NCBI GenBank assembly: GCA_902613615.1
Contig: CACMHQ010000003.1
Location: forward strand, 128,115 to 192,114
DNA length: 64,000 nucleotides
From: an uncultured Candidatus Actinomarina sp.
GTDB lineage: Bacteria > Actinomycetota > Acidimicrobiia > Actinomarinales > Actinomarinaceae
Reading direction: 5' to 3'
Shown: one piece after another, positions 36,163 through 60,321 of the stretch
How the letters are laid out: each line of letters opens with the position of its first letter
How positions within the stretch are numbered: the stretch's first letter is position 1
Notes under the pieces: model-generated
Seen by the model: the letters and a program-made list of their open reading frames with translations, nothing else
What the model was told of the DNA's origin: nothing
Databases searched by the model: none
Translations under genes and position numbers: made by a program

Positions 36163-37449
36163 CTAAGGCAAAACAATTGGCGGATTGTATCCATAAAAAA
36201 TTATTATATATGGAGGCAGTGCAATGCTGTATATAAAATCAGTTAAGCCCAAAATGATTTCATTTAAAGATCTGACATCCAACACCTTCATATCTCTAAA
36301 TAAATGGGATGGTATGTTTACAAAAATATTTATAAAAACTGGAAATAAAAATAGAATGTTTAACTTTTTATTAATTACTTTTTGATTATTTGATAATAAG
36401 CTATTGATTAAGAAAGTAAGAAATATTAACAAAAGCCATCGACCCCAATCTTGAGCAATAAAGAATAATCCAAAATATGGAGAAATTAGTAGTAAATATT
36501 GTAAAAACTTATCTCTATCCATTTCAACTACAAAAAATAGAGATATAAAGAAAATCAAAAATACTAAGACCCAGTTTGAGAAATTATTGTAATAATTAAT
36601 ACCCTGAGCTATTTCACTAAATCCACGATTAATTGATTCAAAATCTCTATTTAGCCACTGTGGATAACCCCAGCAATCTTTTTCTGTTTGGAGAGTATTG
36701 TTATTATTAACAGTATTAATTGATGAACATAGTTTTTCAAAATTAGATACATATCTAAATACAGTCAGTAAAAGAATGTTTAGTGGAAGTAAGAAGAAAG
36801 CTGAAGCATATTTAAACTTCTGTATGTCAAAACCATCTTTTTCTTTAAGAACATAATAAAAAGTGAAAACAAGAAATATGTATATCCCATAGTTTAGAAT
36901 TAATAAAGCAGCAAGAATCGTAAACACTGTTAAGTTAACCTTTTTTCTTTTACCCAAATAAATAAAAAAGTTTAAATAAAATAAATCTCTTCTAGCAAAA
37001 AGGAAGTCAATATTTTGAACGAAATATAGTAAGCCAAAAGGGTTAAACAGTACAAATGCTCTGAATAAAATATGTTTGTCCTTTATTAAAAATAAAATAT
37101 TTAAAACAATGTGATAAAAAGATATTATTCCTATTGCAAAAATTACATATTTTGGGTTAATACCAAATTTATTTAATTGGAAGAGTATCTCACCTGTAAA
37201 ACCTCTTTTAACTAAGCCTCCTTGATAATTAACAAGCCATTCATTGTATGTCCATCCGTTAACAAATTTATAAAAAAAATCAGGTACGAATATGTATGAA
37301 AAGGATACTCCAACAGTTAAAGTTAAAAAAAACGCCAAATCTAGTTTAAAATATTCTTTATATTTTTTTGATAGTGAACTTAGTCCAATATGAATTAGAG
37401 TCAAAGCACCAACTAATTGTGACAACAAAAGTATGTTGGAGTTCTTCAT
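36163..37449 (-). CDS. Polytopic membrane protein, paralogue of 14075..15262
   Basis: It shares the WxYxExLxNYxGxxVxRGxxGEI and DWGRW blocks with the 14075..15262 product. This is the last gene before the att repeat array. Confidence 0.5.
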   Translation of the reverse strand: MKNSNILLLSQLVGALTLIHIGLSSLSKKYKEYFKLDLAFFLTLTVGVSFSYIFVPDFFYKFVNGWTYNEWLVNYQGGLVKRGFTGEILFQLNKFGINPKYVIFAIGIISFYHIVLNILFLIKDKHILFRAFVLFNPFGLLYFVQNIDFLFARRDLFYLNFFIYLGKRKKVNLTVFTILAALLILNYGIYIFLVFTFYYVLKEKDGFDIQKFKYASAFFLLPLNILLLTVFRYVSNFEKLCSSINTVNNNNTLQTEKDCWGYPQWLNRDFESINRGFSEIAQGINYYNNFSNWVLVFLIFFISLFFVVEMDRDKFLQYLLLISPYFGLFFIAQDWGRWLLLIFLTFLINSLLSNNQKVINKKLNILFLFPVFINIFVNIPSHLFRDMKVLDVRSLNEIILGLTDFIYSIALPPYIIIFYGYNPPIVLP

Positions 37450-37537
37450 TTTTTATTATTATACAATGCCATGTTAACTTTTATACAAAATGAGGGATTG
37501 AGTGGTTTTTTACAGTGTATATTCCTGAAAAACCCTT

Positions 37538-37585
37538 GTGGGCGCTACAGGATTTGAACCTGTGACTTCTTCCTTGTAAGGGAAG
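37538..37585 (-). repeat. att remnant 3: a 48-bp copy of the 3' half of tRNA-Val (anticodon stem to discriminator)
   Basis: GTGGGCGCTACAGGATTTGAACCTGTGACTTCTTCCTTGTAAGGGAAG is identical to 46711-46758. It is flanked by TCCTGAAAAACCCTTG on the left and AACGATTA on the right, and these flanks are shared with the other remnants but not with the tRNA. Confidence 0.9.
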
Positions 37586-37597
37586 AACGATTATATT

Positions 37598-39034
37598 TTA
37601 TTTGTCTTTTGATTGATTTAATTTGTAGGGATTAGGTGATGGTGGACACCCTGGAGGACATTTAGGCTGAACGGTTCTTGTTTGACCAGGAATAATTACA
37701 GATGTTCCAGCATCAACAAACGCAACAGACCATCCCCAGTTTTCTGGATCTTCTATAACTAGTTGCGTATTTGAATTAACACCAAAACCTTCATAATATT
37801 GATACATATATCCCATACCTTTTCGTTTATTGATAAAGCCTGCCTCTCGTTTGTCTCCATTATTCTCTGTAAAAATAAATTTTAAATTAACAGGAGACCC
37901 ATTGGTTACAACTACAAAGTCAACTTTTGAGTTATCAGAGAAAGGTAAATCAAGTGTTGTATTGCCATGTCCATGTTGGTTAAATATATAATTATCTGTT
38001 TGAAACCCAAGGTCTGTGGATAGTATTTCTTGTTTTGGATCCAGGCTAGCGTCTCTTTCGTCACCATAAAAGACTACATCCAGATACTCTCCTCCAAATG
38101 GATGTTCTTCTGGTCCGATATACCAACCCATCGAACTTGGAAGTCCTCTTCCCCTCGCCCAGTCGTTACCATAACTTGTACTCTCCCAACCTTCTTTTGG
38201 ATTTCTGTATAAATTTGAGAACTGTTCAACGATTTCTTCAGTAAAAATTGCTGGTGCCATTTCTTGTTCTTTACTTGTACCTCTTTTCTCCATAAGGGCA
38301 AATGCAATATGACTTGAGCCCTGCATGGTTCCAACCATCTCTTCTAGTGTTGGAACGTACATATATCCCAAAATGTCACCTTTTTTAACAACTTGACCAT
38401 TTTCTACTAGAATATAATCTCTAAAGAAGTTTTCATCTTCTTTAATAACATATCCTTCCATCTGATACAGAAAGCTCACAACATTACCATTGTTTTGTGC
38501 AAATTTTAATTTCAGTAAGTAAGCAGAATGCCACCAGGGAGGGTCTGAGTCTGAATGGTCCACAACGTTATAATATGACCCATTTCCTTGTGCCAGCTCA
38601 ATAATTCCATCTGCTACTGCGTATAGTGGTGGAAAATCCGATGGTTTTGTTGCCTCTCTCCATCTTGGATCTGTATTTGAAAAATAAACTTGCGCATCAT
38701 TATGTGGCCTTGGTGAGCGTTTACCTACATAAGGATGTCCTGCAATAATGTCTTCGAAATCAACAAAAAATCTATCACTTTTATTAGTTATAAACTCTTT
38801 TATGTCTGGGAGTGTTTGTATTGTCAATCCGCTGCTTTGACTCTGGTTCCCAGATTCTTGACTAGATGAGGAGTTAGATTGTTCATTAGAATCGGTCTCC
38901 TTGGATTCTTGAGAACTTTTTTCACTTACCTCTTCTTGTGATAATTCCTGATCTTGCTGAGACTGTGTAGAAGTAGATTCCGGTAAGCCTCCACAAAAAG
39001 AAATTAATAGAAAAAGAATTATAACTTTCTTCAT
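37598..39034 (-). CDS. Secreted lipoprotein with a Ser/Gln/Glu-rich linker, function unknown
   Basis: Signal plus lipobox-like MKKVIILFLLISFCGG, then about 60 aa of low-complexity S/Q/E linker, a globular domain, and a C-terminal CPPGCPPSP. A weak M23-like block (GDILGYMYVP...SSHIAFAL) lacks the catalytic His/Asp set. Confidence 0.6.
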   Translation of the reverse strand: MKKVIILFLLISFCGGLPESTSTQSQQDQELSQEEVSEKSSQESKETDSNEQSNSSSSQESGNQSQSSGLTIQTLPDIKEFITNKSDRFFVDFEDIIAGHPYVGKRSPRPHNDAQVYFSNTDPRWREATKPSDFPPLYAVADGIIELAQGNGSYYNVVDHSDSDPPWWHSAYLLKLKFAQNNGNVVSFLYQMEGYVIKEDENFFRDYILVENGQVVKKGDILGYMYVPTLEEMVGTMQGSSHIAFALMEKRGTSKEQEMAPAIFTEEIVEQFSNLYRNPKEGWESTSYGNDWARGRGLPSSMGWYIGPEEHPFGGEYLDVVFYGDERDASLDPKQEILSTDLGFQTDNYIFNQHGHGNTTLDLPFSDNSKVDFVVVTNGSPVNLKFIFTENNGDKREAGFINKRKGMGYMYQYYEGFGVNSNTQLVIEDPENWGWSVAFVDAGTSVIIPGQTRTVQPKCPPGCPPSPNPYKLNQSKDK

Positions 39035-39098
39035 ATAATTTTATTTTATTGAAAATGTAATTGAATTGCAGGGGTCAAGTGAGTAATTTACCCAGCAA

Positions 39099-39878
39099 TT
39101 AATTATTTTTACAATACTCGCTACTGCTGCCATCATTCCCAGAGGGTGGTAAATTTCTAACTATTTCTTCGTCATTAGGAGTTAACCAATCAAACCAACA
39201 AACTGCATGTTTGGCAATTTCATATCCAAACGATTTTACTAATTCTGAAGTTTTGCTTGCCTCATTTTCTTTTCTATAGTCATATATACCAAAATCTACG
39301 AATACATTATTTAGTATTCCAACTTCGGTAGCTATCACTTCACCTTTTAAAAACTCTACATTTTCTAGATTTGTTGTTCTTGTTTCCCCTTCTTTTGGAG
39401 CGGGAAGATTATCTGCAATTTCTTGTAATTTTGGAGATAATACTAGTAAGTGGTCAAGCCTAAATTTCACATTACAAGCTGTATTAAATTCAAACATATA
39501 CTGAACTTGTCCTTCAACAACATATCTACTACCAAGTACTAAAAAACTATCAATTGGGATCTTCACTGTAATCTTGTTGTTGTTATCACCTAAGCCATCA
39601 AATCTAAATCCACCGTGTGGTTTAAAATAATTAGCTCTGATTTGTCCTGGATATAAAATTGAAGTAACCAAATTTAGATCAACAGGAGTATCAAACAATA
39701 ACTTTTCGGGGCAATCATTATTTATTGACTGTGTATCAGTCGTAGATATAGTTGTCGTATCTTCGTCTCTTGTGGTTGTTGAAGTTGTAGATGTAGCTGT
39801 CGTTATTAACGGTTCAATTGTTTGATCGGACCCACCACAAAATGAAAAAAACATAATTACAACAGCTATTTTTTTCAT
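39099..39878 (-). CDS. Secreted lipoprotein with a Thr/Ser-rich linker, function unknown
   Basis: MKKIAVVIMFFSFCGG carries the same SFCGG lipobox context as its neighbour. It is followed by a T/S-rich linker and then a globular domain. Confidence 0.6.
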   Translation of the reverse strand: MKKIAVVIMFFSFCGGSDQTIEPLITTATSTTSTTTRDEDTTTISTTDTQSINNDCPEKLLFDTPVDLNLVTSILYPGQIRANYFKPHGGFRFDGLGDNNNKITVKIPIDSFLVLGSRYVVEGQVQYMFEFNTACNVKFRLDHLLVLSPKLQEIADNLPAPKEGETRTTNLENVEFLKGEVIATEVGILNNVFVDFGIYDYRKENEASKTSELVKSFGYEIAKHAVCWFDWLTPNDEEIVRNLPPSGNDGSSSEYCKNN

Positions 39879-39898
39879 AGTGTCATTTTATTAAAAAT

Positions 39899-39917
39899 GT
39901 TCGGTTTTTGTTCGGTT
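39899..39917 (+). repeat. GTTCGGTTTTTGTTCGGTT motif (lipoprotein island, att-proximal arm)
   Basis: A variant of the GTGCGG repeat, ending 38 bp before att remnant 2. Confidence 0.45.
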
Positions 39918-39955
39918 GAGCTACATATATATGTAAAGATTTCTGAAAAACCGTT

Positions 39956-40003
39956 GTGGGCGCTACAGGATTTGAACCTGTGACTTCTTCCTTGTAAGGA
40001 AAG
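39956..40003 (-). repeat. att remnant 2: a 48-bp copy of the tRNA-Val 3' half (1 mismatch)
   Basis: Same 48-mer as 46711-46758 with G>A at 40001. Flanks are TTCTGAAAAACCGTTG (left) and AACCATTA (right). Confidence 0.9.
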
Positions 40004-40118
40004 AACCATTAAATACTAGGTAGTATCACAAAGTATCAATTTATAAAGTCAATGAACTTAACCTCTTTTAAAAAGATATCAGAAGTTATCAGACAGTATC
40101 TACAGTTATAGAAAAAAT

Positions 40119-40139
40119 GTGCGGTTTTTGTGCGGTTTT
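40119..40139 (+). repeat. GTGCGGTTTTTGTGCGGTTTT motif (mini-island, att-distal arm)
   Basis: An exact 21-mer is also present at 40683-40703, and a variant GTTCGGTTTTTGTTCGGTT at 39899-39917. It has the same 11-bp internal periodicity and the same distance from the att core (~116 bp) as the GTGGGGG motif of the 6-kb element (~119 bp). Confidence 0.5.
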
Positions 40140-40149
40140 ATGTTGTTCT

Positions 40150-40653
40150 TTAGTATTTAAAAATTTTCTCAAAATTATTATGTATCCATAGCCTATACGA
40201 AGATCCCACATCCATAATTTGATCAGATAACGATTCTTTTAAAATTTTATCTAAAAAAAACACGGGTAGGAAAATATAAAAAAACCAAAATGGTATTCCC
40301 ATCATAAAGTAAATCATTGATACAGTTTTAGAAAAACTTCCAATTAACACAAGTACTAATATCCAAAAAAAATAAAAAAAGTACCCATTCCAATCATATT
40401 CTCGCTCCAGTTTCCAATCTCTGTAGAGCTCATATAGAGGAACAAGAATTGTAATTGGTAACAGTAAACTAAGTCTATCTAACCTACTCTCGTTTGGGTC
40501 CATTTCATATAAAGTATCTCTAGAGATAATTTCTTGAAGTTCTGCTTCAAGTTTTTTTTCTTTGTCAGTTAAGGGGGTTTGTTCCTTTTTTTGCTGAAGT
40601 TTGTAAATATTGCGAACAGCTTTATCGTGCTGGTGTTTATTGATCTTTTTCAT
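40150..40653 (-). CDS. Membrane protein with a charged N-terminal coiled region; sole ORF of the mini-island
   Basis: 167 aa. The N-terminus is K/E-rich (KLQQKKEQTPLTDKEKKLEAELQE), followed by 3 hydrophobic helices. No motif recognised. Confidence 0.5.
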   Translation of the reverse strand: MKKINKHQHDKAVRNIYKLQQKKEQTPLTDKEKKLEAELQEIISRDTLYEMDPNESRLDRLSLLLPITILVPLYELYRDWKLEREYDWNGYFFYFFWILVLVLIGSFSKTVSMIYFMMGIPFWFFYIFLPVFFLDKILKESLSDQIMDVGSSYRLWIHNNFEKIFKY

Positions 40654-40682
40654 ATCAAAATTTTACAAAAATTAACATAGAT

Positions 40683-40703
40683 GTGCGGTTTTTGTGCGGT
40701 TTT
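40683..40703 (+). repeat. GTGCGGTTTTTGTGCGGTTTT motif (mini-island, att-proximal arm)
   Basis: Second exact copy, ending 36 bp before att remnant 1. Confidence 0.5.
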
Positions 40704-40739
40704 TTGTATTTTAGTAGGGTAGATTTCTGAAAAACCCTT

Positions 40740-40787
40740 GTGGGCGCTACAGGATTTGAACCTGTGACTTCTTCCTTGTAAGGTAAG
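40740..40787 (-). repeat. att remnant 1 (distal att site of the 6-kb element): a 48-bp copy of the tRNA-Val 3' half (1 mismatch)
   Basis: Same 48-mer with G>T at 40784. Flanks are TTCTGAAAAACCCTTG (left) and AACCATTA (right). Confidence 0.9.
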
Positions 40788-40794
40788 AACCATT

Positions 40795-41075
40795 ATATAT
40801 GGGGGTATATGGTTACCTCTGAAAACTTGTACTCCACTTGTGGAAACCCTATCTGAAAACCTACGAATACCAATGACAACCCCCCATTATTATGAAGTTG
40901 CAGGAGTGGGGGAAAAGTGGGGGTGCAATATCTATGACCCTCAGGTGTCAATGTCGGGGGGTGCTATATATATTATGTAAGGCGCTCGGAAATTACTGGT
41001 AAATCTGTACTACCTATTGCATATGTCAATTTAGTGGGGGCGTATATGTATATGTAACCCCTCAGTAAATGTGCG
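40795..41075. repeat. G-tract/TATAT iteron-like array in the ORF-free arm of the element
   Basis: Five G5-6 (or C6) tracts lie within about 250 bp: 40801-40805, 40880-40885 (C-run), 40906-40923, 40956-40961 and 41034-40. Most are followed by TATAT-type sequence. CCCTCAG and TCTGAAAAC are also repeated here. Confidence 0.5.
40906..40923 (+). repeat. Putative arm-type integrase site GTGGGGGAAAAGTGGGGG (distal arm)
   Basis: An exact 18-mer is also present at 46635-46652 in the same orientation. It has an internal 11-bp direct repeat of GTGGGGG. Confidence 0.55.
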
Positions 41076-41728
41076 GAACATTATTCTTAAGTTAGAAAAG
41101 AAAGGTGGTGTTTAATGGCGTGTCCAGAATGCGGATGTGAAGATTAAAGTAGGGCGCATTAATAATCGCTAACTGTTGAATTAGTACGATAGGGTTAAGG
41201 TACTAATGAGACGCGAAATGACCTTTGTCATTTCATCTTACACACTAAATAGCTAGGTAAAACAAGCTAAACATCCATTACAACTGACAGATTAGATTTT
41301 AAATTCGTCTCAAAAGTCGTTTAAGCAAGTCGTTTTTAATACTGAACACAGGACAAATACAGTAGTGGACAAATGACAATTCAGTAAGTTTTGTATGCGG
41401 TAACCTACGACTAACTCTGAAATATCGTATCAGATTGCCCTCCGCTAGTGGAACATAAATCACTACATCAAATGACAAGATAGGGGCATATCAAATCAGA
41501 ACATTAAAAAACTTCTACAAATTTGGGCAGAAAAAAAATCAGTAAAGGTATTTGGGGTGGAAAGCCTATAAACACTAGAAAAAACCACCCGCCCTACGCT
41601 TTTTTACCTAAGTTTCAGCAAGTTATAGAACAATATATGCAATTATTCTTCTTCTTCTGCAACATACTTAAGTTGTTTGGAAACAAGCTCAAGAACTTCC
41701 AATGGTTCTTTGGGATAATTGTTATTCA

Positions 41729-41914
41729 TTATTCTTCTTCCCTAAGAGTATTGGCTTTTACTTTACTGATGTCAGATACGACCTTGATTAAAGACTGATT
41801 AAGTTCTTCATCTTGATAAGGTTTATTATCTTCATTCACTTGTTGCTGAGCATTTAAGACAGTCTCAAACATCTTCGTGAATACAGTATTAATTCGTTCT
41901 TTTCGTTCACTCAT
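41729..41914 (-). CDS. Small acidic hypothetical protein (61 aa)
   Basis: The ATG at 41914 overlaps the stop of the upstream gene by 8 nt (ATGAGTGA), which suggests translational coupling. The ORF track's longer version (to 42034) would overlap 128 nt of the upstream CDS. Confidence 0.35.
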   Translation of the reverse strand: MSERKERINTVFTKMFETVLNAQQQVNEDNKPYQDEELNQSLIKVVSDISKVKANTLREEE

Positions 41915-42497
41915 ATGGGTAATCCTTTCCCAATTCTTTCTTACATATCTCAACTTTTTGTTCGTGGGAATAAGCGTCAAGGTCAATGTCTTTTCCTTTC
42001 GCATACTCTTGGTCAAACCAAACTTCAATAGCAAAGAATTGATTGCTTTTAATATCTTCTTCTGTTTGTTTTTCAGGCAAGAACCTAGTCTCTAGGTCAA
42101 GTTCCATATCATCAATCATATGGTCAGGGACAATCTCAGGCTTACTTGAATTGAGTTGAAAGTTATGAGGGTCATATCTTTCTAACATCCACTTAGCTGA
42201 AGATACATTCCTGTTATTGATTGCGTCATCATTGATTATCTCTATGAGTTGACCTTTGTACTTACTCATTGCTCTGTTTGTTTGATAGTAGAAATTAATA
42301 AACACCTGCTCTTCATCTTCCATTCCAAGCAATGTCCAACGCCTAAATGTTTTAGGACTAATTCCAACACGCATACAAGCGTCAGGTAATGGAGCTCCCT
42401 GTTCCAAGAACTCGCAAAGCTTATCCAAATCTACTTCATTAATCTTTGATGGACGCCCTATTGCTAGGGCTCCATCTTGTCTTTTATCTTTTTTCAA
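41907..42497 (-). CDS. Small-terminase-like / HTH DNA-binding protein
   Basis: The N-terminus GRPSKINEVDLDKLCEFLEQGAPLPDACMRVGISPKTFRRW and the later block SSAKWMLERYDPHNF follow the pattern seen in phage small terminase subunits (GRP.K...G.s...a....gis..T...W ... a.W.LER..P..f). Confidence 0.45.
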   Translation of the reverse strand: MKKDKRQDGALAIGRPSKINEVDLDKLCEFLEQGAPLPDACMRVGISPKTFRRWTLLGMEDEEQVFINFYYQTNRAMSKYKGQLIEIINDDAINNRNVSSAKWMLERYDPHNFQLNSSKPEIVPDHMIDDMELDLETRFLPEKQTEEDIKSNQFFAIEVWFDQEYAKGKDIDLDAYSHEQKVEICKKELGKDYPYE

Positions 42498-43678
42498 AAT
42501 AGTTCCACCTCTTCTTGTTTATATTCAGGCGGTTCTTCTTCAGGTAGGTACTTAGCAAATGCGTCCAACATATCGTTGAAGTCATAGCCTCGTTTATTAT
42601 CAGTACCAATTCGCATTTGTTTTGGATATATTTCATATCTCTTTAATCCATTAGCTACTTGGTTCTGATTAATACCATTACCTTTGTTCCAATTAACGAA
42701 ACGATTTTCCAAGAAGTCATTGACCTTAACTGCAAGGTCGTTAGAAAAGATTTTGTCTGTTGTTTGTTCACGCATAATTGTTCTGCACAACATTAACAAT
42801 TCAATCTGCCAACTTTGGTCATTGTCTATATAGTTCTTAGAAGTTATTTCATTAATGGCGTTCAATGTATCAAGAGCCCAATCTAAATTACCCATAGTTG
42901 CAATGGTTAAAAGCGGTGCGCCAATATCTATTGCTCTAGAGTTTGTGTTGGTAACCCTAAGTATTCTGATACATTTTACATAGTCCTCTATTGTCCAAAA
43001 TGGATTGTTCTCTTCATCAACTTCATCTTTAAATTGATTGAGTTGTAAGGTAACTCCATATTCAAACTGTTCTGATATTTCAGGTAGGTCTAAATTAAAC
43101 ATCTCTATTTCTTGAACTGTTGCTCTTTGTAACCCAATAGGAAAACTTCTTTTTCTTAAAGCGTCACTAATGGCGTCTTGTCCAATACCACAAATAACTT
43201 TGGGGCAGTAAACATTAAACCACTTGGGAGTAAATGACGCTCCAACAAGCTTTGGAACTTTAGCTCCACGCTTACTGAAACCTACATTTAAAACACCCAT
43301 AAGCTCAGGTCTATTTTCAACATCTAATTTATCAATCTCATCAAACATCATTGTTCCCTCATTGCTATCAATAATTCTGTAGATAGCATTGGTAGGCATA
43401 GTCATATCCAATGGATTGAATACAAGTTCTTTAAGGACATCTAACAAAGTAGATTTTCCACATTCAGGCTCAGGGCTATAGATGTGGATGTACCCACTAA
43501 AGTTGAACTGCTTATAAAAGTATGTGGACACCACATAATTGGCTAACAATATAGCCTCGTTGTCACTCTGAAAGCAGATGAAAGTTTTAAGTAGTCTGAC
43601 AACAGTATCAAAAATATTTTGAAACTCCGCATTATCTTTGACTACACTTTCCAAAGCGTCTTCGTATGTAGTGTCCAT
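42494..43678 (-). CDS. P-loop NTPase, putative replication (primase-associated / SF3-helicase-like) protein
   Basis: Walker A-like PEPECGKSTLL and Walker B MMFDEIDKL, followed by LMGVLNVGFSKRG. The start at 43678 (MDTTYEDA) gives a TAATG junction with the upstream ORF; the ORF track starts at 43705. Confidence 0.5.
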   Translation of the reverse strand: MDTTYEDALESVVKDNAEFQNIFDTVVRLLKTFICFQSDNEAILLANYVVSTYFYKQFNFSGYIHIYSPEPECGKSTLLDVLKELVFNPLDMTMPTNAIYRIIDSNEGTMMFDEIDKLDVENRPELMGVLNVGFSKRGAKVPKLVGASFTPKWFNVYCPKVICGIGQDAISDALRKRSFPIGLQRATVQEIEMFNLDLPEISEQFEYGVTLQLNQFKDEVDEENNPFWTIEDYVKCIRILRVTNTNSRAIDIGAPLLTIATMGNLDWALDTLNAINEITSKNYIDNDQSWQIELLMLCRTIMREQTTDKIFSNDLAVKVNDFLENRFVNWNKGNGINQNQVANGLKRYEIYPKQMRIGTDNKRGYDFNDMLDAFAKYLPEEEPPEYKQEEVELF

Positions 43679-43872
43679 TATCCATACCTCGCATAATCTC
43701 GCCATTCCATACGACCTGTAACTGATATAACTTTTTTACGATTACATTCACAAGAACTAGTGCAGTAGTGAAGTTCACAGGTGCATAGTTCCCAAGCGTT
43801 ACAAGTGTTACAGTAAACATAAGTTCCCTCTGTATGTCGTGGCGGTATGTTATACTTCAATTGGAACCTCAT
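43678..43872 (-). CDS. Small Cys-rich (zinc-finger-like) protein
   Basis: YCNTCNAWELCTCELHYCTSSCEC has 8 Cys in 24 residues. It is translationally coupled to the P-loop gene. The start is uncertain (43872 or 43911). Confidence 0.35.
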   Translation of the reverse strand: MRFQLKYNIPPRHTEGTYVYCNTCNAWELCTCELHYCTSSCECNRKKVISVTGRMEWRDYARYG

Positions 43873-44161
43873 TATCAGGGGTTTTTCTAGGAAAATTACT
43901 AACCATACCAAAGGTCTTTCCTAGTTGATGTTCTTCTAACCAAACTTTGAACCAACATTCAAATGTTTTTACTCTTCCAAATAACTTAAAGAATGTCGGT
44001 AAGTTCCCTGCAGTCCTCTTTTCTCTGAGCGTACTTTCAGGAACATTCCACTTATCTGACACCTGCTTTAGTGTCAAACAAGCACAATCACGAACTATAT
44101 GTTTACAGTTCTGATGATGTTGAAGATAATCGTTATTCATCTTCCTCTTGGTAGTTCTCAA
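43850..44161 (-). CDS. Excisionase/AlpA-like (MerR-type HTH) DNA-binding protein
   Basis: LTLKQVSDKWNVPESTLREKRTAGNLPTFFKLFGRVKTF fits the HTH_17/excisionase pattern (lt..e.a..l.vs..Tl.....G.lP....g+...f). Confidence 0.5.
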   Translation of the reverse strand: MRTTKRKMNNDYLQHHQNCKHIVRDCACLTLKQVSDKWNVPESTLREKRTAGNLPTFFKLFGRVKTFECWFKVWLEEHQLGKTFGMVSNFPRKTPDNEVPIEV

Positions 44162-44420
44162 AGAAATCTTTCCACTCAGTTAACCCCAAATAAATATTGT
44201 GAAGAGTTGATTTATTCGGATGTTGAGCGCCTCTGAATATCCTTGAGATAGTAGCCTCGCCAAGTCCTATAGAGTAACCAAGTCTTGATTGAGTTAAGCC
44301 AAAGTTCTCTTTAAGATACTCAAACTCTTCAACCAAATCTGCAATGGTTAGCTCGGGTAGAACCCACATCATAGGCATATAGTTTTCAGATAACTGAACT
44401 TCTCTTGTCTTAAGAGCCAT
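44133..44420 (-). CDS. XRE-family HTH transcriptional regulator (cI/Cro-like)
   Basis: GLTQSRLGYSIGLGEATISRIFRG is a canonical HTH_3 motif. It is the first gene of the leftward operon and faces a divergent intergenic region. Confidence 0.65.
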   Translation of the reverse strand: MALKTREVQLSENYMPMMWVLPELTIADLVEEFEYLKENFGLTQSRLGYSIGLGEATISRIFRGAQHPNKSTLHNIYLGLTEWKDFFENYQEEDE

Positions 44421-44464
44421 TCTTACCTAGCTTTCTGACTGCTATTGCTAATAAATAGATGGTT

Positions 44465-44535
44465 TTGTCTTATCAGCAGTCTTTTACTAAGACAACCACT
44501 ATATGTAGTATATCACATCAAATCGTATTGTCTTG
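44465..44535. promoter_or_regulatory. Putative operator set in the divergent control region of the element
   Basis: Inverted repeat TTGTCTTA (44465-72) / TAAGACAA (44488-95), plus a third half-site TTGTCTTG (44528-35). All lie between the divergently transcribed XRE gene and the 262-aa ORF. Confidence 0.4.
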
Positions 44536-44581
44536 CTGAAAACACTTGATTACGACAAAAGATGTGTTAATCTATGATTAG

Positions 44582-45370
44582 ATGAAAGTTAATAAAATTG
44601 TTACCAATACTGATGGGCAATGTACTGTTGCTGAAGTCATCTTTGAACCTAGAGATAAAATAGGAAATGAAACTGTTGATGACTTTCTTCAATACTCTGT
44701 AACTCTTGAGCTCAACCAAGCCACAAAGATTGTAAGTTACAAAGCTCATTCAAGTGGTGTTGTTGCTAGTGGTATTAACTACATTCCAAAAGATGTAACA
44801 AAATTTAGTCCTACCCAACTCTTTAATGCAGGGTGGTCTTACATTATGAAAGCTAAAGGGTTTGAAAGTTGGCAACCTCAAATGATTGAAGAACTTGAAA
44901 CCTACATCAAAGAGGCAACCAAGAACAAGAAATCATTTTCAATGAAAGGCGATACGAACAAAGCTATCTTCGTTGCAACCTACCTTTATTATTTAAATGC
45001 CATACCTACTGCTATTGAAAGTAGGCACGAAGAAATGTGCAACAAACTCAATATGTCTAGTGGTCAGTTGTCTAAAAATCTAAGTAGAGTTTCTGTTCCT
45101 ATTGAAGATATGCAGAAATTTTCTAAGAAGAACAAAGTCAATGTATTCACTTCCCTTGACAAGATGACTGTTACTGACAAAGATGTTTACTTAATGAAAC
45201 ATTCTGACAGAAATATTTTAGGTGGTTACATAACTCAGTACGCACAACAGTTAGTTGAAAAACAATTGTCACATAAATATCAAGAAATTGGAATGGATTA
45301 CACAGTTGCTTTAGACCCTAACTACCTTATGGCAGTTGTTGGGGATAGTAGGAAAGTAGATAAGAAGTGA
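44582..45370 (+). CDS. Hypothetical protein (262 aa), co-transcribed with the integrase
   Basis: A long ORF whose composition matches the rest of the element. Its stop overlaps the integrase GTG start. No motif recognised. Confidence 0.5.
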   Translation: MKVNKIVTNTDGQCTVAEVIFEPRDKIGNETVDDFLQYSVTLELNQATKIVSYKAHSSGVVASGINYIPKDVTKFSPTQLFNAGWSYIMKAKGFESWQPQMIEELETYIKEATKNKKSFSMKGDTNKAIFVATYLYYLNAIPTAIESRHEEMCNKLNMSSGQLSKNLSRVSVPIEDMQKFSKKNKVNVFTSLDKMTVTDKDVYLMKHSDRNILGGYITQYAQQLVEKQLSHKYQEIGMDYTVALDPNYLMAVVGDSRKVDKK

Positions 45371-46467
45371 AACCTATCAAGTGCTCTTCCTCAAAGTGTT
45401 CTAAGAAATGTAAGTATGTAGTTCGCTACAAAGATAGAGCAGGAAAGGTTAAAGAAAAACATTTCCATAGCTACAAGTTAGCTAATCAGTTTGTTACTGA
45501 AGAGACTATCAGACAGGAAACAGGATTACTTTCTTCTGAACAGTCACAGAAAATGACCTTGAATGAATTTATTACTACAGTTCCTTTGACTAAAGGTAAT
45601 GAAACAACTCAAGCAGTTACACAACAGTTATACGACAAACATATCAAAGATACATTAGGTAGTTACAAGCTCAGAGATATATCAAGATTAGATTGTCAAA
45701 AGTTTATGGATGAAGACCTTGCGGGTTACTCGCCAACAAGTAAGCAAAAGATTAAAAGAATTCTTGATACTGCTTTTAAATATGCGTCTAGTGATGGCTT
45801 TATTGTTAGGAACCCTGCTGAAAATGTAATCATTGAGGGCGAAATGAGGGAAAGGGAACCTCAACCATTAACTCCAACACAACTAACTGAATTTATTTCT
45901 TTATGGGATGAAGATGAATACTTATCTGAATATTCAAATGTCGTAGTTGCTTTGGCTTACACAGGTATGCGACCACAAGAAATGGGAGCTTTGACTTGGG
46001 ATGATGTTGACTTAACTGAACGAACCTTAGATTTAAATAAAGTAATTAAGAAAGACCCTAAGGGTAGTCAGTTTGATAGTCCATTAATGAAATCTAAATC
46101 TGCAAGTAGGGTGTTAGCTATTGATGATGAACTACTAGCTAGGTTACGCTTTAGAAAATCAACGAACCCTAATGACAAGTATGTATTCTCTAGTTCTCTT
46201 GGACATCAAATAAATCTAAATAACTTTAGAGGAAGATACTTCAAGAAAGCAGTACTGTTGACTGACTTACCTATTGAAAGACCATACGATTTACGCCATA
46301 CATTTAGCGCATTGATGTGGTCTAGAAATGTACCTTTAGGAAAATTATCAAGAATGATGGGTCACAGTAGTGTCAATGTCACTCAACAATGGTATGGCAA
46401 TTGGTATCGTGAGGCAGACTTTTCAGGTATTGAAACACTAGAACAATGGAAAGAACAACAAGCCTAA
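45367..46467 (+). CDS. int: Tyrosine recombinase (phage-type integrase) with an N-terminal arm-binding (AP2-like) domain
   Basis: The C-terminal catalytic region YDLRHTFSALMW...MGHSSVNVTQQWYGNWY carries the R..H-x-x-R..H..Y pattern. The N-terminus YVVRYKDRAGKVKEKHFHSYKLANQF resembles an arm-type DNA-binding domain. GTG start. The gene lies 240 bp from the tRNA. Confidence 0.85.
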   Translation: MKPIKCSSSKCSKKCKYVVRYKDRAGKVKEKHFHSYKLANQFVTEETIRQETGLLSSEQSQKMTLNEFITTVPLTKGNETTQAVTQQLYDKHIKDTLGSYKLRDISRLDCQKFMDEDLAGYSPTSKQKIKRILDTAFKYASSDGFIVRNPAENVIIEGEMREREPQPLTPTQLTEFISLWDEDEYLSEYSNVVVALAYTGMRPQEMGALTWDDVDLTERTLDLNKVIKKDPKGSQFDSPLMKSKSASRVLAIDDELLARLRFRKSTNPNDKYVFSSSLGHQINLNNFRGRYFKKAVLLTDLPIERPYDLRHTFSALMWSRNVPLGKLSRMMGHSSVNVTQQWYGNWYREADFSGIETLEQWKEQQA

Positions 46468-46634
46468 CTTTTACCTAACCTTTGTCTGACCTCTTACGAA
46501 TAATTAATGTTTAGTTTGTAACACTTGTTTAACCCTGTGTAGATATGCACCTACAAAAATGTCTTTATAGCGATATACAGTTAAGACTTTTGTCTTCGTA
46601 AATGACAACATTAAGACATAATTCTTTCAAAAAA

Positions 46635-46652
46635 GTGGGGGAAAAGTGGGGG
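46635..46652 (+). repeat. Putative arm-type integrase site GTGGGGGAAAAGTGGGGG (tRNA-proximal arm)
   Basis: An exact copy of 40906-40923, located 58 bp from the att core in the tRNA. Confidence 0.55.
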
Positions 46653-46708
46653 AAACGACAAATTTATTATTATATGACAAGAACATTCGGTTAAAAGCCT
46701 ACAAACAT

Positions 46709-46785
46709 TGGTGGGCGCTACAGGATTTGAACCTGTGACTTCTTCCTTGTAAGGGAAGCGCTCTGCCGGACTGAGCTAAGCGCCC
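46709..46785 (-). tRNA. tRNA-Val (anticodon UAC), CCA encoded
   Basis: The minus-strand sequence GGGCGCTTAGCTCAGTCCGGCAGAGCGCTTCCCTTACAAGGAAGAAGTCACAGGTTCAAATCCTGTAGCGCCCACCA folds by hand into a full cloverleaf: 7-bp acceptor, GCTC/GAGC D stem, CTTCC/GGAAG anticodon stem with loop CTTACAA, and ACAGG/CCTGT T stem with TTCAAAT loop. Confidence 0.93.
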
Positions 46786-47566: not shown

Positions 47567-48279
47567 AAAATTTAGTAGTTATTCCAACATACAACGAAGC
47601 AGATAATATTTTATTACTTCTTTCTGAAGTTCTTTTATTAGATGTAGATGTCCTGGTTGTAGATGACAATTCTCCAGATGGCACACAAAAATTAATTTTG
47701 GAACATGATTTATTTGGTAAAAGGATCTTTATTTTACAAAGAGAAACTAAATTGGGGCTAGGTTCTGCATATAGAGAAGGTTTTCAATGGGGAATAGAAA
47801 ATAAATACCATAATATGATTCAAATGGATGCAGATTTTTCTCATCAAGTATCTGATTTAAAAAAATTAATTGATGAAAAAAAAGATAGTGATGTTGTTAT
47901 TGGAAGTAGATATATAAAAAGTGGAAAGATTGACGGTTGGAGCAATAATCGTTATCTCTTATCTCTTTTTGCAAATAAATATTCTAGATTTTTAACGTTT
48001 AGTAAAATTCATGATATGACAAGTGGATTTAGAATATATACATTGAATGCACTAAATCAAATTGATTTCAAGTCAACAAAAAGCAATGGTTATGCCTTTC
48101 AAATTGAAATGACAGTTTTATCTCTAATTGCAAAATTAAATATTGTTGAAATTCCAATAACTTTTAATGAGAGAAGAGAAGGCAGTTCTAAGATGAGTTT
48201 GGGTATTGTTGTTGAAGCTTTTCCTAAAGTTATTTTATTGTGTATTAAGAGGATTGTTAGTTTCTTAACTACAACCTAA
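47563..48279 (+). CDS. Polyprenol/dolichol-phosphate mannosyltransferase-like GT2 (Ppm1/DPM1 type)
   Basis: LVVIPTYNEADNILLL...VLVVDDNSPDGT, QMDADFSH, VVIGSRY, DMTSGFR, and the typical NGYAFQIEM block. Confidence 0.8.
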   Translation: MKNLVVIPTYNEADNILLLLSEVLLLDVDVLVVDDNSPDGTQKLILEHDLFGKRIFILQRETKLGLGSAYREGFQWGIENKYHNMIQMDADFSHQVSDLKKLIDEKKDSDVVIGSRYIKSGKIDGWSNNRYLLSLFANKYSRFLTFSKIHDMTSGFRIYTLNALNQIDFKSTKSNGYAFQIEMTVLSLIAKLNIVEIPITFNERREGSSKMSLGIVVEAFPKVILLCIKRIVSFLTTT

Positions 48280-51200
48280 AGAGTTTCCACAGTTTAAACA
48301 TTTGTAACAAGACCCATTTCTTATGGTTATGTGACCACAATCAGGGCAAGCAGGTGCATCCCCCATCATGTCGCCAAGTACCTCTTGTACTGTTGTGACA
48401 GAATTTGAAGTAGTCTGTGTTTCTTCCAAAGGTTCTATCTCTTTAAGTTTTGTAACAAACTGTACTTCTTTTGCTTCATTTGAAACTTCTGTTTCTTTTG
48501 AACTGCTTGGAGATTCAGTTTCCTTTACCTCTACCACTGGTTCAGATACTTCCTCATTTGGTGCTGAAGAAGTTTCTTGAGCTGGTGCTGGAGAAGATTC
48601 TTGAGCTGGAGCTGGAGAAGATTCTTCAGGTGGATTCTGTACAATATCAGTTCTGTTTAAATATTCTAAACCTAGGGCTCTAAAGACATAATCAACAATA
48701 GAGTTACTCATTTTTATATTTTCATGTCCTTCAACCATTCCACGTGGTTCAAATGTTTGAAAAGTGAAGGTATCCACAAATTCTTCTAATGGAACACCAT
48801 ATTGAAGACCTTTAGATACAGCGATAGCAAAACATCCAAGGACTCCTTTAAGTGTTGCACCTTCTTTTGCAATGTCTATGAACACTTCACCAAGTGTTCC
48901 GTCTGGATATTCTCCAGTTCTAAGATATACTTTATGGCCTGCAATTCTTGCTTCTTGAGTCCACCCTTCTCTTCTTTCAGGTAACAAGAATCTTGGTCTT
49001 GTTGTGCCAGCATAAGCTCTTGTAGGGCTTGTTCCTGCAGGATAATTCCCATGCATTAACATTGATTCACTTTCGATGATTTCTGAGACTTGAGGATCAG
49101 TTTCTTCTGATTCACCATCGTCTGAAGAGGCAGACAATGGCTGAGATGCTTTAGATCCATCTCTATAAATTGCTATTGCTTTAATACCAAGACCTGCAGA
49201 TTCGAAATAGCAGTTTTCTATATCTTCTATTGTTGCTTCGTTGGGCATATTTACAGTTTTTGAAATTGCACCAGAAATAAATGGCTGTGCTGCGGCCATC
49301 ATTCTAACGTGACCCATGTAGTGAATAAATCTCTCACCATCATTTCCACATTTGTTAGCACAATCAAATACACTAAGATCCTCATCTTTTAGATGTGGAG
49401 CTCCCTCGATTGTTTGAGTTCCACAAATAAATTTGTTTGCTTCTGATATTTCAGTCTTTGTAAATCCTAGTTTTTCTAAAAGATTGAAATCAAAAGATGT
49501 ATATTCTTCTTCTTGGATATCAAGTCTTTGCATTGTTTCTTCACCAACAACAAATACATTAAATGCATGTTGTATTTCAAATGCACCTGGTAAAGAATTT
49601 TCAATATTTTCAATGTCTTGATCATTCAAACCTTTATCTTTAAGTGTTTCTTTATTAACAAATGGAGCACCATCTAGTGACATTGATCCAATGACATATT
49701 GAATTATTTCCTCACTTTGTTGATCAGTGTAACCGAGTGCGTTCAATGCTGGACCAATTGACTGGTTTGCTATCTTCATATAACCACCACCAGCTAGTTT
49801 CTTAAATTTCATTAAAGCAAAGTCTGGTTCTACACCTGTGGTATCACAATCCATGAGCAAACCAATTGTTCCAGTTGGAGCTAATACGGTAGCTTGTGCA
49901 TTTCTATATCCATGTTTCTCACCAAGTTCAAGGGCTCCATCCCATGACTCTTGTGCACCTTTGAGTAAATCATCGGGACACAAGTCTTGATCTATTGGTA
50001 GTAAATCATGACTGATTCCAACATAATCACTAGAATCATAAGCTGCTTTTCTGTGGTTGCCCATAACACGAAGCATATTGTCTTTGTTTTCTGAATATTT
50101 TGGAAATGGTCCTACTATGCTTGCCATTTCTGCTGAGGCTTTATATGCTTCACCAGTTAACATTGCTGTTAAAGCACCTGCAATAGCTCTACCTAATTCT
50201 GAGTCATACGCAATACCTTTTCTCATCAATAGGGATCCAAGGTTTGCATATCCCAAACCAAGTGTTCTGTAGTCATAAGATCCTTGAGCAATTTCTTTTG
50301 AAGGAAACTGGGCCATTTCAACGGATATTTCAAGGACTACAGTCCAGATTCTTAGTGCATGCTTATATGATGCAACATCAAATACCTGGTTATCATCATC
50401 ATAAAATTTAACTAAGTTCAAACTTGCTAAGTTACAGGCAGTATTGTCTAAAAATAAGTATTCAGAGCATGGATTTGATGCTCTAATTTGTCCACCTGCT
50501 GGGGAAGTGTGCCACTCATTAATGGTTGTGTTGAATTGAACACCAGGATCTGCACATCTCCAAGCAGCATCTGCTATTTTATTCCATAATTCTCTTGCTT
50601 TTACAGTTTTCATTGTTGAACCATCTGTTCTTGCTGTAAGTTCCCAATCTCCATCTGTCTCGAGTGCTTTTATGAATTCATTTGGTACTCTTACAGAGTT
50701 ATTTGAGTTTTGACCAGAAACAGTAGCATATGCTTCGCCGTTGTAGTCTGATGGATACCCAGCATTGATTAGCGCTCTCGCCTTATCTTCTTCAATAGCT
50801 TTCCACTCAATAAAATCTTCAATATCTGGATGGTCAAGATCAAGAATAACCATTTTTGCAGCTCTTCTTGTTGTTCCACCTGATTTAATTGCACCAGCAG
50901 CTCTGTCTCCTATTTTTAGGAATGACATCACACCTGAGGAAACACCACCACCAGAAAGTTTTTCTCCCTCACCTCTTAGGTTTGAAAAGTTTGTACCTGT
51001 ACCAGATCCAAACTTAAATAATCTTGCCTCTTTTACCCAAAGATCCATAATTCCACCCTCGTTGACAAGATCATCATCAATAGATTGAATGAAACAAGCA
51101 TGCGGCTGTGGTCTTGAGTAAGAGTCTTCCCCTGGCGTTAATTCACCTGTACTTGGATCAACATACCAAAATCCTTGTGGTTTCCCAGTTAATCCATATT

Positions 51201-59370: not shown

Positions 59371-60321
59371 TTAACCAGTTGGCTCAATAGCTTCTGTAGT
59401 GATTGCCTCATCTGTTTCTAGAAGTCCACAGTCTTCGAGTACTTCGTCAGTGTTTCCTCCACCAAATACAACTCTCTCAAAAACCACAACCGCGTAAATC
59501 TCATCTTCAGTAAGTTTTCCTGCAAATCCAGGCATTCCGCCGATTGATACTTTATTCTCTGCTCCATACGCGGGTCCAATTTCAGCCTGCCAACCTGCAG
59601 ATCCTAGTTCAATCCACAATGCATGATCACTACAAGTTGGAAAAGTGGTATAAAGTTCTCCACCAGTAAATGCAGGACCTACCCCTCCACCACCATTTAC
59701 TCCATGACAACCAGCACATGCTGCAGCACCAGAATAAACTTGTTGTCCAAGGGCGATATAATTTATTGAGCTTGCAGATCCAACACCTTTTCCTTCAAAC
59801 GCTGATCCATCACAGTTCACAGTTAATTGGGTTTTTCGATCAACATCTAAAATTCCGTTCTCCCCACATTCTTGTGTGGATGATGTATTGACTATCCCAA
59901 TAACAATAAAGAGGGGAATAAGTACAAAACTAAAATTTAGCCATCTTGGCAAAGATGTTTCAGCATTTACTTTTATATCCAATGTCTTATTTGCGAACGA
60001 TACTTTTTGTATAACTTTTTTAATATTTGTTTGAGAAGATACTACTGGTGAACTTTCATTTTCATCTTTTACAATTTCTGCTGACTCTTCTTTGGGTTCT
60101 TCTATATCGGCTATGTCTTCAACAGGTGCCGCCGGTTCTTCAGCGGGCGGTGCTTCTTCAGCAGGTTTTTCAACAGATGCTACACTTTCACCTCCAGCCC
60201 ATGATTGTAAAACTTCATCTACAGTTCTTTCAGAAGCTTCAGCTCTAGCTTCAGCAGATCGTTGCACCAACGACTCGGGTGCATTTAATAATTCAGCAAC
60301 TTTACTTAAGAGTTCACTCAT
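59371..60321 (-). CDS. Membrane-anchored monoheme c-type cytochrome (N-terminal cytoplasmic module, TM helix, cytochrome c domain)
   Basis: Heme motif CAGCHGVNGGGG and the distal GGMPGF methionine block. One TM helix (FSFVLIPLFIVIGIV). The first 62 aa are identical to the upstream paralogue. Confidence 0.75.
   Translation of the reverse strand: MSELLSKVAELLNAPESLVQRSAEARAEASERTVDEVLQSWAGGESVASVEKPAEEAPPAEEPAAPVEDIADIEEPKEESAEIVKDENESSPVVSSQTNIKKVIQKVSFANKTLDIKVNAETSLPRWLNFSFVLIPLFIVIGIVNTSSTQECGENGILDVDRKTQLTVNCDGSAFEGKGVGSASSINYIALGQQVYSGAAACAGCHGVNGGGGVGPAFTGGELYTTFPTCSDHALWIELGSAGWQAEIGPAYGAENKVSIGGMPGFAGKLTEDEIYAVVVFERVVFGGGNTDEVLEDCGLLETDEAITTEAIEPTG
60135..60321 (-). repeat. 187-bp direct repeat, copy A (5' module of the cytochrome c gene)
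   Basis: Base-for-base identical to 60949-61135 by manual alignment (offset 814 bp). Confidence 0.9.

Follow-up and report, generated by a model that had tools for sequence, protein, structure and literature searches.

How do the streamlined genomes of Candidatus (Ca.) Actinomarina acquire the genes of their flexible island? The question is raised by a tRNA-Val(UAC) locus in a 64,000-nt stretch of DNA from an uncultured member of this genus (GenBank assembly GCA_902613615.1, contig CACMHQ010000003.1, positions 128,115 to 192,114; this whole stretch is called the window below). Three partial copies of the tRNA gene (remnants) lie in tandem beside the intact one and delimit three islands, here named E1, E2 and E3 from the tRNA outward. 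The flexible genomic island fGI1 of Ca. Actinomarinales has been described as small gene cassettes at tRNAs, marked by tRNA direct repeats, with five tRNAs per island and evidence for cassette transfer between genera; identifiable mobile elements were stated to be absent, and the word "integrase" occurs nowhere in that paper (Lopez-Perez et al., 2020, PMC7771536). A phage fragment has a 43-bp attachment (att) site that matches Actinomarina tRNA-Val exactly (Mizuno et al., 2013, PMC3861242), and a prophage also uses this tRNA (PMC7771536, PMC3861242). A 2026 preprint on 84 complete genomes leaves the integration mechanism still to be identified (bioRxiv 10.64898/2026.04.03.716425).

We consider it likely that the locus is a site-specific accretion array, in which the 3′ part of tRNA-Val serves as bacterial attachment site (attB) for a single family of lambda-type integrases, and which is built of integrase-less cassettes and autonomous elements such as E1. 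A wider reading, tentative and in our judgement slightly easier to doubt than to believe, is that of an integron-like cassette economy running on lambda-type recombination, with single genes in a minimal four-site phage-type attachment site (attP) moved in trans between species by the integrases of transient, satellite-like 6-kb elements, and with arm sites and integrase N-terminal domains diversifying together into at least a dozen types.

The recombination core is a 48-mer. An earlier note on this DNA had reported its recurrence at three further positions with 0–1 mismatch; we reproduced this, all copies being in direct orientation, and obtained no match in 100 dinucleotide shuffles. The note had also pointed to sequence common to the remnants that the tRNA gene lacks, and for this window an alignment of the four copies agrees: on the left the remnants share TTCTGAAAAACC[C/G]TTG (CCTGAAAAACCCTTG at the outermost), or equivalently (T/C)CTGAAAAACC(C/G)TTG, and on the right all three share AAC[C/G]ATTA. 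The intact tRNA carries the TTCTGAAAAACCCTTG flank in most other Actinomarina genomes, because the innermost unit there is a cassette and not an E1-type element. The sole variable base of the 48-mer is position 45, which gives GGGAAG in every intact tRNA and GGAAAG or GGTAAG in remnants. Among ~60 copies from other loci the base of a remnant follows the type of its right-hand arm. Since this base travels with the arm, the last 4 nt are element-borne mimicry, leaving ~44 nt of true attB/attP identity, and strand exchange must take place left of position 45.

A scan of one genome per bacterial species for a remnant with its right flank gave 25 loci, of which 24 are Ca. Actinomarina/OCS155 or, in one case, unclassified Actinomycetota; the array is thus hosted by Ca. 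Actinomarina. The remaining locus (L033, PATA01000003.1) is in a Flavobacteriaceae-labelled metagenome-assembled genome and has an exact Actinomarina tRNA-Val remnant with a cassette-type arm; its label is probably a binning error or the contig a contaminant.

Some ~30 cores were aligned together with their flanks, which revealed two conserved arms, P′ to the right of a remnant and P to the left of the next core. With the shared right flank the P′ arm begins, and with the shared left flank the P arm ends, as in dozens of units elsewhere, so that the remnant flanks are element-borne attP arms, as had been proposed. In cassettes the P′ arm is ~135 nt long (AACSATTAAATACTAG..GTATCAGAGAGTATCA..GATATCAGARGTTATCAGAGAGTATC.., with a tandem doublet at its end) and the P arm ~60 nt (a doublet, ~25 nt, then GATTTCTGAAAAACCCTT). 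The doublet consists of two copies of a 7–9-nt G-rich repeat unit spaced 11 bp apart; E1 has the same doublet plan with the repeat unit GTGGGGG, its arms being otherwise unrelated to those of cassettes. We counted the repeat unit in seven integrase-bearing elements (E1, L040, L050, L076, L072, L077 and L086; integrases 42–100% identical). It is present five times in each of the seven, in a single orientation and at fixed positions on both sides of the core: about +116/+127 and +243 to +248 on the P′ side (+119, +130 and +247 in E1), and on the P side −76/−65 in the E1-like clade (76 and 65 nt from the core in E1) or −57/−46 in a second clade. In six of the seven it is absent from the rest of the 4–7 kb, L072 having one extra copy at +2467. 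Judged by sequence, these elements have sites distant from the core on both arms, as attP arm sites should be.

Integrase-less cassettes follow the same plan with one site fewer. Ten of the 12 examined have exactly four copies, at +116/127 and −57/−46 within 1 nt, and in no case is there a site at +245; in the remaining two (L011, L034) further copies lie internally. The repeat unit is identical on both arms in 20 of 20 units (permutation mean 1.5, maximum 9 in 100,000 trials); neighbouring units differ in it, and at least 12 types occur. The 64-kb window has five doublets in the array and two unrelated period-12 repeats, as against 0.22 expected from shuffles.

The attP of phage lambda has two arm-type sites, the core and three more sites (P1, P2, P′1–3), that of mycobacteriophage L5 requires two adjacent arm-site pairs, and in both these sites are bound by the N-terminal domain of the integrase. 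Since two sites, core and three sites is the lambda plan, and two pairs the L5 plan, we read the doublets as arm-type integrase-binding sites; by this analogy we infer that they are bound by the N-domain of the integrase described below. If so, we read the cassettes as carrying a minimal yet complete attP. The likeness extends to the size of attP (~245–330 bp), to a core flanked by direct arm-site repeats, and to adjacent pairs about one helical turn apart, as in P1/P2 and P4/P5 of L5. The arm-site sequence is, unlike that of lambda and L5, unusually diverse within one integrase family on one attB, its binding here being predicted.

Other repeats were seen in the arms. The cassette P′ arm (window 40004–40116; L007–L035) has three to four TATCAGAGAGTATC-like repeats between core and doublet, at ~+20 and from +73 to +100, and E1-type arms have instead TATATGGGGGTATATGG and two copies of TCTGAAAAC; the TATCAGAGAGTATC-like repeats may be sites for an excisionase or a host bending factor. 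L011 (2703–4452 and 1–2625) includes a cassette with three doublets, the additional one being internal (GGTGTC at +1078/+1089), as though fusion of two cassettes had followed the loss of a core; at the same locus the homologue of the 259-aa protein of E3 lies in two pieces ~2 kb apart.

E1, the innermost island, spans 40788–46710 (5923 bp, 35.9% G+C). Its integrase gene adjoins the tRNA, and next to its distal core lie ~1.1 kb without long open reading frames; relatives have cargo inserted past about +290. It is a small integrated element (<15 kb) with integrase, regulator, replication-like and terminase-small-subunit (TerS)-like genes, the helix-turn-helix (HTH), excisionase and TerS calls being weak or PHROG-only. 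The DUF3631 protein is a candidate replication-module protein, and searches with Pfam and PHROG found no capsid or capsid-remodelling genes. From these genes E1 would appear to resemble a phage satellite, or a tycheposon of the kind similar to phage-inducible chromosomal islands (PICIs), and would then depend on a helper phage. Queries of IMG/VR with the integrase, the DUF3631 protein, the integrase family alignment and the cassette arm pattern returned no E1 relatives, so that encapsidation is unsupported, and tblastn of the integrase against GenBank phages gave no Actinomarina helper phage, identities being ≤28% (Streptococcus and Mycobacterium phage integrases). E1 might otherwise be a small integrative element of plasmid type, or what is left of a defective prophage, moving free of any helper, for example in vesicles or by transformation. 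We hold this to be unlikely, though well worth keeping in view: it fits the lack of capsid and capsid-remodelling genes, the TerS call made by PHROG with Pfam below its cut-off, and the absence of the family from IMG/VR, and the DUF3631 module would permit a circle to replicate autonomously. The PICI-like gene order (integrase, regulators, replication-like, TerS-like) and the narrow size range of 6.2–7.3 kb speak for a satellite, as does the retention of the TerS-like gene in relatives whose integrases are only 44% identical.

Whatever its vehicle, E1 is an intact, autonomous and cargo-less element, probably recent and active. In contig L038 an identical (100%) integrase gene is followed by the E1 P arm, a core with GGTAAG and the E1 P′ arm; such an attP junction is that expected of an excised circle or of a tandem copy. 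Contigs with a 78%-identical integrase (L040, L041) are 6369 bp long, each with ends that overlap by 127 nt; they are circular permutations of one another and come from many samples. Terminal redundancy with a single tRNA-Val core was also found in L050, L076 and L086, and in metagenomes circular relatives of E1 measure 6.2–7.2 kb. The earlier note had proposed looking for circular attP junctions of every segment; the proposal held for E1 (L038 and the permuted, overlapping relatives), and for integrase-less cassettes no such junction was found. Among contigs with terminal overlaps there was no composite circle with two cores.

Two variants of E1-like loci were encountered. To the left of the E1 distal core in L037 (1–356) lies the P arm of a different E1-like element, whose doublet GTAGGGG is of the type found with the L046 integrase (83% identical), so that a tandem of two autonomous elements is possible. 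In some clade-B loci (L078–L082, L087) the core extends for 5 more tRNA bases (CGCTC), followed by contig-specific sequence, and in L078–L082 it lies 1.1 kb downstream of the integrase gene instead of the usual distance of about 210–250 nt; these loci may belong to a variant type of element, or to a phage whose match to the tRNA is longer. For L014, whose arm is of cassette type and where no integrase lies within 7.9 kb, we considered a prophage; its PHROG matches were non-diagnostic.

The order of arrival can be followed in other genomes. In L093, a contig from a single-amplified genome (SAG), E3, with the same 478-aa protein and a TGTTCGG P arm, directly adjoins the intact tRNA-Val and has a different upstream flank. 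This is the state before arrival of E2 and E1, and it bears out the proposal that successive insertions pushed older units outward. The identical 478-aa protein occurs in several SAG assemblies (L093–L097), and the outer neighbour of E3 differs between the window, L093 and L094/L095. The two genes right of tRNA-Val in the window encode GT2 glycosyltransferases, and among contigs with an identical glycosyltransferase L003 and L007 have a cassette with a 464-aa ScoMcrA_N/NOV_C gene in place of E1, while L008 has a mini-cassette of ~415 nt there; most of these contigs break exactly at the tRNA. The arrangement is therefore polymorphic; a fixed arrangement in all relatives would have counted against the proposal. 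A 740-nt cassette with a 204-aa gene is 94–100% identical in three GTDB species representatives (L016, L017, L027) and the SAG contig L094, where it stands at different ranks of the array, the homology being bounded by the flanking cores and the flanks being at random-level identity.

Two of the three islands, E2 and E3, have no integrase. E2 retains a complete attP; E3 is the same kind of unit with its P′ arm lost, and is probably immobile by itself now. Beyond the outermost remnant lies a probable older cassette, E4, whose left boundary could not be located. That DNA further left came in by the same route, as had been suggested, is supported for E4, through the P-arm profile match listed in Table 1; in the remaining 36 kb, searches for cores, arms or doublets gave nothing more. 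As to how such cassettes arise, the clade-B circular element L076 has the E1 backbone, to which a GNAT acetyltransferase gene is added between P′ arm and terS-like gene; L050 exceeds E1 by ~2.2–2.5 kb at the same position; and L077 is an integrated 3.9-kb element with only an integrase gene and a GSDH-like cargo gene. These form a continuum from full element with GNAT cargo (L076) through integrase with cargo (L077) to cargo-only cassettes, and a deletion reaching from the cargo to the P-arm doublet would yield a cassette. Clade-B elements end in cassette-type arms, and one P′ subtype is common to L072, L077 and L081. Most cassettes, however, have a P′ backbone of their own regardless of doublet type or cargo, which together with the presence of the 740-nt cassette in three species suggests propagation as cassettes and not repeated new origin. 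The integrase family is encoded at none of the 25 genome loci, so any site-specific cassette movement must depend on an integrase provided in trans, whether by a transient element or by a phage; its absence there fits action in trans by transient elements.

The integrase-less units might instead be inert deletion remnants of formerly autonomous elements, moved by RecA-type homologous recombination, including Campbell-type insertion of circles, with repeated cores and conserved arms serving as portable homology, and by no integrase. This we regard as rather improbable, even with several observations on its side: E3 has no P′ arm and yet its identical gene stands beside different outer neighbours and in another species, 66–250 bp of near-identical sequence is present at every junction, most arrays lack an integrase, and the series from full element to cargo only can be seen. 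What decides us against it is the precision of the cassettes. Random decay would hardly leave 10 of 12 with exactly the four sites within 1 nt, keep the two arms matched in every unit while the units differ from one another, or let cargo abut the doublets precisely; the P′ backbone distinct from that of autonomous elements suggests propagation as cassettes, and core position 45 always segregates with the P′ arm, as with exchange at a defined point.

Relatives of the E1 integrase form about two dozen sequence clusters (42–100% identity) in public metagenomes, typically on ~6-kb contigs. In 22 family members the catalytic residues R202, K242, R310, H311, H333 and Y343 are invariant. In the E1 protein a predicted N-terminal domain of three strands and a helix precedes a SAM-like core-binding domain and a catalytic domain, and with the whole model Foldseek returned Tn1549 Int (7e-16) and full-length lambda Int (2e-11). 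AlphaFold predicts the N-domain as β3-α (strands 3–5, 17–22 and 28–33, helix 36–52) at a predicted local distance difference test score of about 80–90; by this model the integrase would have, like those of lambda and L5, an extra N-terminal domain of β-sheet plus helix. The arm-site unit differs with integrase lineage and tracks N-terminal residues. An N-terminus ..RYRVRWRDKAGKQK.. (WRD..GKQK) pairs with the unit TGTGGGTC; the near-identical ..RYRVRWYDKAGKEK.. and, independently, ..RYRVRWYDKQGKER.. pair with GCGGGTC, so that WYD..GKE[KR] goes with GCGGGTC in two separate lineages; and KYVVRYKDRAGKVK of the E1 integrase pairs with GTGGGGG. All 22 members also have invariant Cys6, Cys11 and His32 and a third Cys whose place is clade-specific (window 45367–45560), which looks like a small metal-binding motif. 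This sets the N-domain apart from known arm-binding domains, among which we know of no comparable Cys/Cys/His motif. Searched by profile against PDB sequences, the isolated N-domain gave no significant match.

The doublets could bind some other factor: the 256–280-aa protein whose gene lies just before that of the integrase; an excisionase or directionality factor; or else an initiator of replication, the doublets then being iterons. We think this more doubtful still. The 262-aa gene that overlaps the start of the integrase gene is conserved across the family, tandem 11-bp repeats are typical of iterons too, and the isolated N-domain found no significant structural match. The sites, however, stand at set distances on either side of the core and are essentially absent from the rest of the elements, the vicinity of the DUF3631 gene included; cassettes without a replication gene keep their doublets; the layout is that of the lambda attP, and the two pairs that of L5; and the integrase has an extra N-terminal β3-α domain, as modelled, whose residues track the site sequence. 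Consensus promoter and terminator scans stayed at or below shuffle expectation, so the doublets are unsupported as promoters or terminators.

That the array is an assembly artefact of a repeated 48–90-bp sequence is hardly credible: many metagenome contigs do end exactly at tRNA-Val, where assemblers struggle, but independent SAG and metagenome contigs from other samples repeat the junction of remnant 3 and E3 (L093–L096), that of the E3 P arm and core (L093) and the E1 attP arms (L037, L038), and many SAG assemblies have multi-unit arrays, so that the repeats are real.

On the site-specific accretion reading, attP would consist of a P arm of ~60–80 bp with a tandem site pair, ~44 bp of tRNA identity plus 4 mimicking bases, and a P′ arm of ~135–250 bp with a second site pair, to which autonomous elements add a fifth site. 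On integration the tRNA is restored and a core copy remains at the distal end, so a newcomer pushes earlier units outward; the order of arrival would have been E4, E3, E2, E1, with E1 existing also as an excised circle. E2 would be non-autonomous, with a complete four-site attP around one gene. Cassettes, whose movement in trans we infer, would most likely be excised and integrated by cognate integrases of transient autonomous elements, or be co-excised with a neighbour, and would spread between species.

Several points weigh against this account. Integrase-less cassettes yielded no circular or self-joined junction, and past ~30 nt the cassette P′ backbone is unlike that of every sampled autonomous element, except for the subtype of L072, L077 and L081. 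The sites of E1 (GTGGGGG) differ from those of E2 (TGTGCGG) and E3 (TGTTCGG), so the E1 integrase may not act on its neighbours. E3 without a P′ arm stands in several contexts, so that recombination independent of arm sites also shuffles units; homologous recombination through repeated cores and arms probably explains its spread. The satellite label comes from a TerS-like PHROG match and gene order, in a family with no relatives in IMG/VR. The pairing of doublet and integrase is a prediction from sequence, the covariation of N-terminus and site is confounded by phylogeny, and Foldseek gave nothing significant for the isolated N-domain, the N-domain of Tn916 Int being at rank 14 (E = 3.8).

Much here has precedents. 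The fGI1 cassettes and the tRNA-Val phage att site concern the same organism group and the same phenomenon as this array, and neither paper reports an integrase, an autonomous small element or att-site anatomy, which are described here (PMC7771536, PMC3861242). The tRNA repeats and cassettes of fGI1 have thus been known since 2020, and tandem site-specific accretion at a tRNA is known from tycheposons and from cis-mobilizable elements (CIMEs) with integrative and conjugative elements (ICEs). As far as our literature search shows, this is the first description of the E1 family and its circular forms, of the arm-site doublets and of the four-site attP of cassettes. In tycheposons of Prochlorococcus, tyrosine-recombinase elements integrate at island tRNAs, partial tRNAs separate successive integrations, older elements are pushed into the island, PICI-like variants have terS and replication genes, and elements are rare and transient relative to islands (bioRxiv 10.1101/2020.12.28.424599). 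The likeness to island building in other streamlined marine bacteria that the earlier note drew is apt as a mechanism: a streamlined marine host, integration at an island tRNA, partial-tRNA repeats and tandem arrays are shared, matched by described behaviour only. The tycheposon work by Hackl et al. was reportedly published later in Cell. The host here is of another phylum, and integrase-less single-gene cassettes with a complete matched-site attP are not known to figure in the tycheposon description.

CIMEs that accrete with Streptococcus ICEs are att-flanked, have no recombination genes, stand in tandem with an autonomous relative and may undergo composite excision (PMC5704250; ICEberg 2.0, PMC6323972). 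E2 and 11 other cassettes are likewise att-flanked and without integrase or transfer genes. CIMEs are generally decay products of ICEs mobilised by conjugation, whereas conjugation genes are not present in the units here, which are ~0.4–3.4 kb long, mostly single-gene and numerous, with a cassette-specific backbone and a precisely spaced four-site attP. In function the cassettes resemble those of integrons, being single, mostly co-oriented, promoter-proximal genes arrayed at one site and putatively served by an integrase in trans. Unlike integrons, the array has no adjacent IntI-type integrase and no attC hairpin; its repeats are direct copies of part of a tRNA, its attP is double-stranded and of lambda type, and the integrase is borne on separate mobile elements. 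The VEIME satellites were considered and set aside, Actinomarina and tRNA att sites both being absent from the main text (PMC9618062).

The partial tRNAs retain some tRNA character. Remnant 2 with the first 18 nt of the E2 P′ arm (39965–40021, minus strand) scores 32.4 bits with the Rfam tRNA model, above the gathering score and covering model positions 10–63, and remnant 3 (37547–37602, minus strand) scores 26.4 bits. The cassette arm starts with AACCATTAAATACTAGG, like a degenerate D-arm region, as if an ancestral attP had copied more of a tRNA. With the E1 P arm attached the tRNA gene encodes its 3′ CCA (..GCGCCCACCA; window 46709–46712), and with a cassette P arm (..GCGCCCACAAGGG; L003 1705–1710) CCA is not encoded, so the innermost element changes the 3′ trailer of tRNA-Val. 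Rfam gave no RNA family besides tRNA and partial tRNA in the array or the window.

The locus is inside the envelope-glycosylation island fGI1. The part of the window left of the array, at 25% G+C, has genes for glycosyltransferases and for polytopic membrane proteins that match no Pfam family. To the right, past the two glycosyltransferase genes, is a class II ribonucleotide reductase gene (window 48265–51657) whose G+C content of 36–39% is above that of its neighbours. Among contigs encoding the identical glycosyltransferase it is missing from L006 (S6, Ddl and Mur ligase genes instead) and L010 (94-aa and SNO/GATase genes instead) and is in pieces in L005 and L008; the right flank is thus polymorphic too. 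The 21-nt period-12 repeat AGCTTCAGCTCTAGCTTCAGC occurs twice (window 60235–60255 and 61049–61069, 814 bp apart) and is unrelated to the array. Coordinates of the features are collected in Table 1. An exact-protein lookup of the E2 cargo matched no record.

Table 1. Features of the tRNA-Val array, in window coordinates.
Feature	Position	Strand	Evidence and remarks
Intact tRNA-Val(UAC), attB	46709–46785	−	ARAGORN; Rfam tRNA 73.8 bits; sole tRNA in the window by ARAGORN
Recombination core, tRNA 3′ part	46711–46758		48-mer
E1 P arm, integrase stop codon to core	46468–46710	+	Doublet P1/P2 GTGGGGG at 46635, 46646
E1 tyrosine integrase, 366 aa	45367–46467	+	Pfam Phage_integrase 5.3e-19, Phage_int_SAM_3; PHROG 1 integrase 1.5e-50
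262-aa protein, end overlaps integrase start	44582–45370	+	256–280-aa gene at same position in relatives
Small HTH (Xre-like) regulator, weak	44133–44420	−	Pfam HTH_3 1.4e-4, below curated cut-off; PHROG transcriptional regulator
Excisionase-like small protein, weak	43850–44161	−	PHROG 66 excisionase/transcriptional regulator, E = 0.0044
DUF3631 protein, 403 aa	42494–43705	−	Pfam DUF3631 2.5e-17; conserved in L037, L040, L076
Terminase-small-subunit-like protein, 196 aa	41907–42497	−	PHROG 4102 6e-17; Pfam Sf6_terminase 8e-4, below cut-off
E1 P′ arm and non-coding region	40788–41906	+	P′1/P′2 GTGGGGG at 40906, 40917; P′3 at 41034
Remnant 1, distal junction of E1	40740–40787	+	Core copy with GGTAAG; 1 mismatch
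E2, complete integrase-less cassette	40004–40739	−	nhmmer P′ arm 7.7e-38, P arm 3.7e-15
E2 P arm	40654–40739		TGTGCGG at 40682, 40693
E2 membrane-protein gene, 167 aa	40150–40653	−	
E2 P′ arm	40004–40140		TGTGCGG at 40118, 40129
Remnant 2	39956–40003	+	Core copy with GGAAAG; 1 mismatch
E3, decayed two-gene cassette	37586–39955	−	P arm intact; P′ arm cut to ~12 nt
E3 P-arm sites			TGTTCGG at 39898, 39909
E3 secreted or lipoprotein-like gene, 259 aa	39099–39878	−	
E3 secreted-protein gene, 478 aa	37598–39034	−	
Remnant 3	37538–37585	+	Exact core copy; 0 mismatches
E4, probable older cassette	36163–37537	−	428-aa polytopic membrane protein (no Pfam match) and degenerate P arm
E4 degenerate P arm	37451–37537		nhmmer, P-arm hidden Markov model, E = 9.1e-9; degenerate doublet TGAGGGATTGAGTGG at 37491–37505

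Few free-living marine bacteria are as small or as abundant as Ca. Actinomarina. Its order has one order-wide flexible island with rapid turnover, though identifiable mobile elements were described as absent (PMC7771536). The locus offers a candidate mechanism for this turnover: an integrase family, small autonomous carriers with circular forms, an attP plan, and one-gene cassettes reduced to their attP. With it, the acquisition of island genes in streamlined genomes without resident mobile elements becomes directly testable. The many arm-site variants on a single attB would provide a natural system for studying the evolution of arm-binding specificity in tyrosine integrases, and if the integron-like reading is true, arm-site diversification may be an arms race of autonomous elements against cassettes exploiting them.

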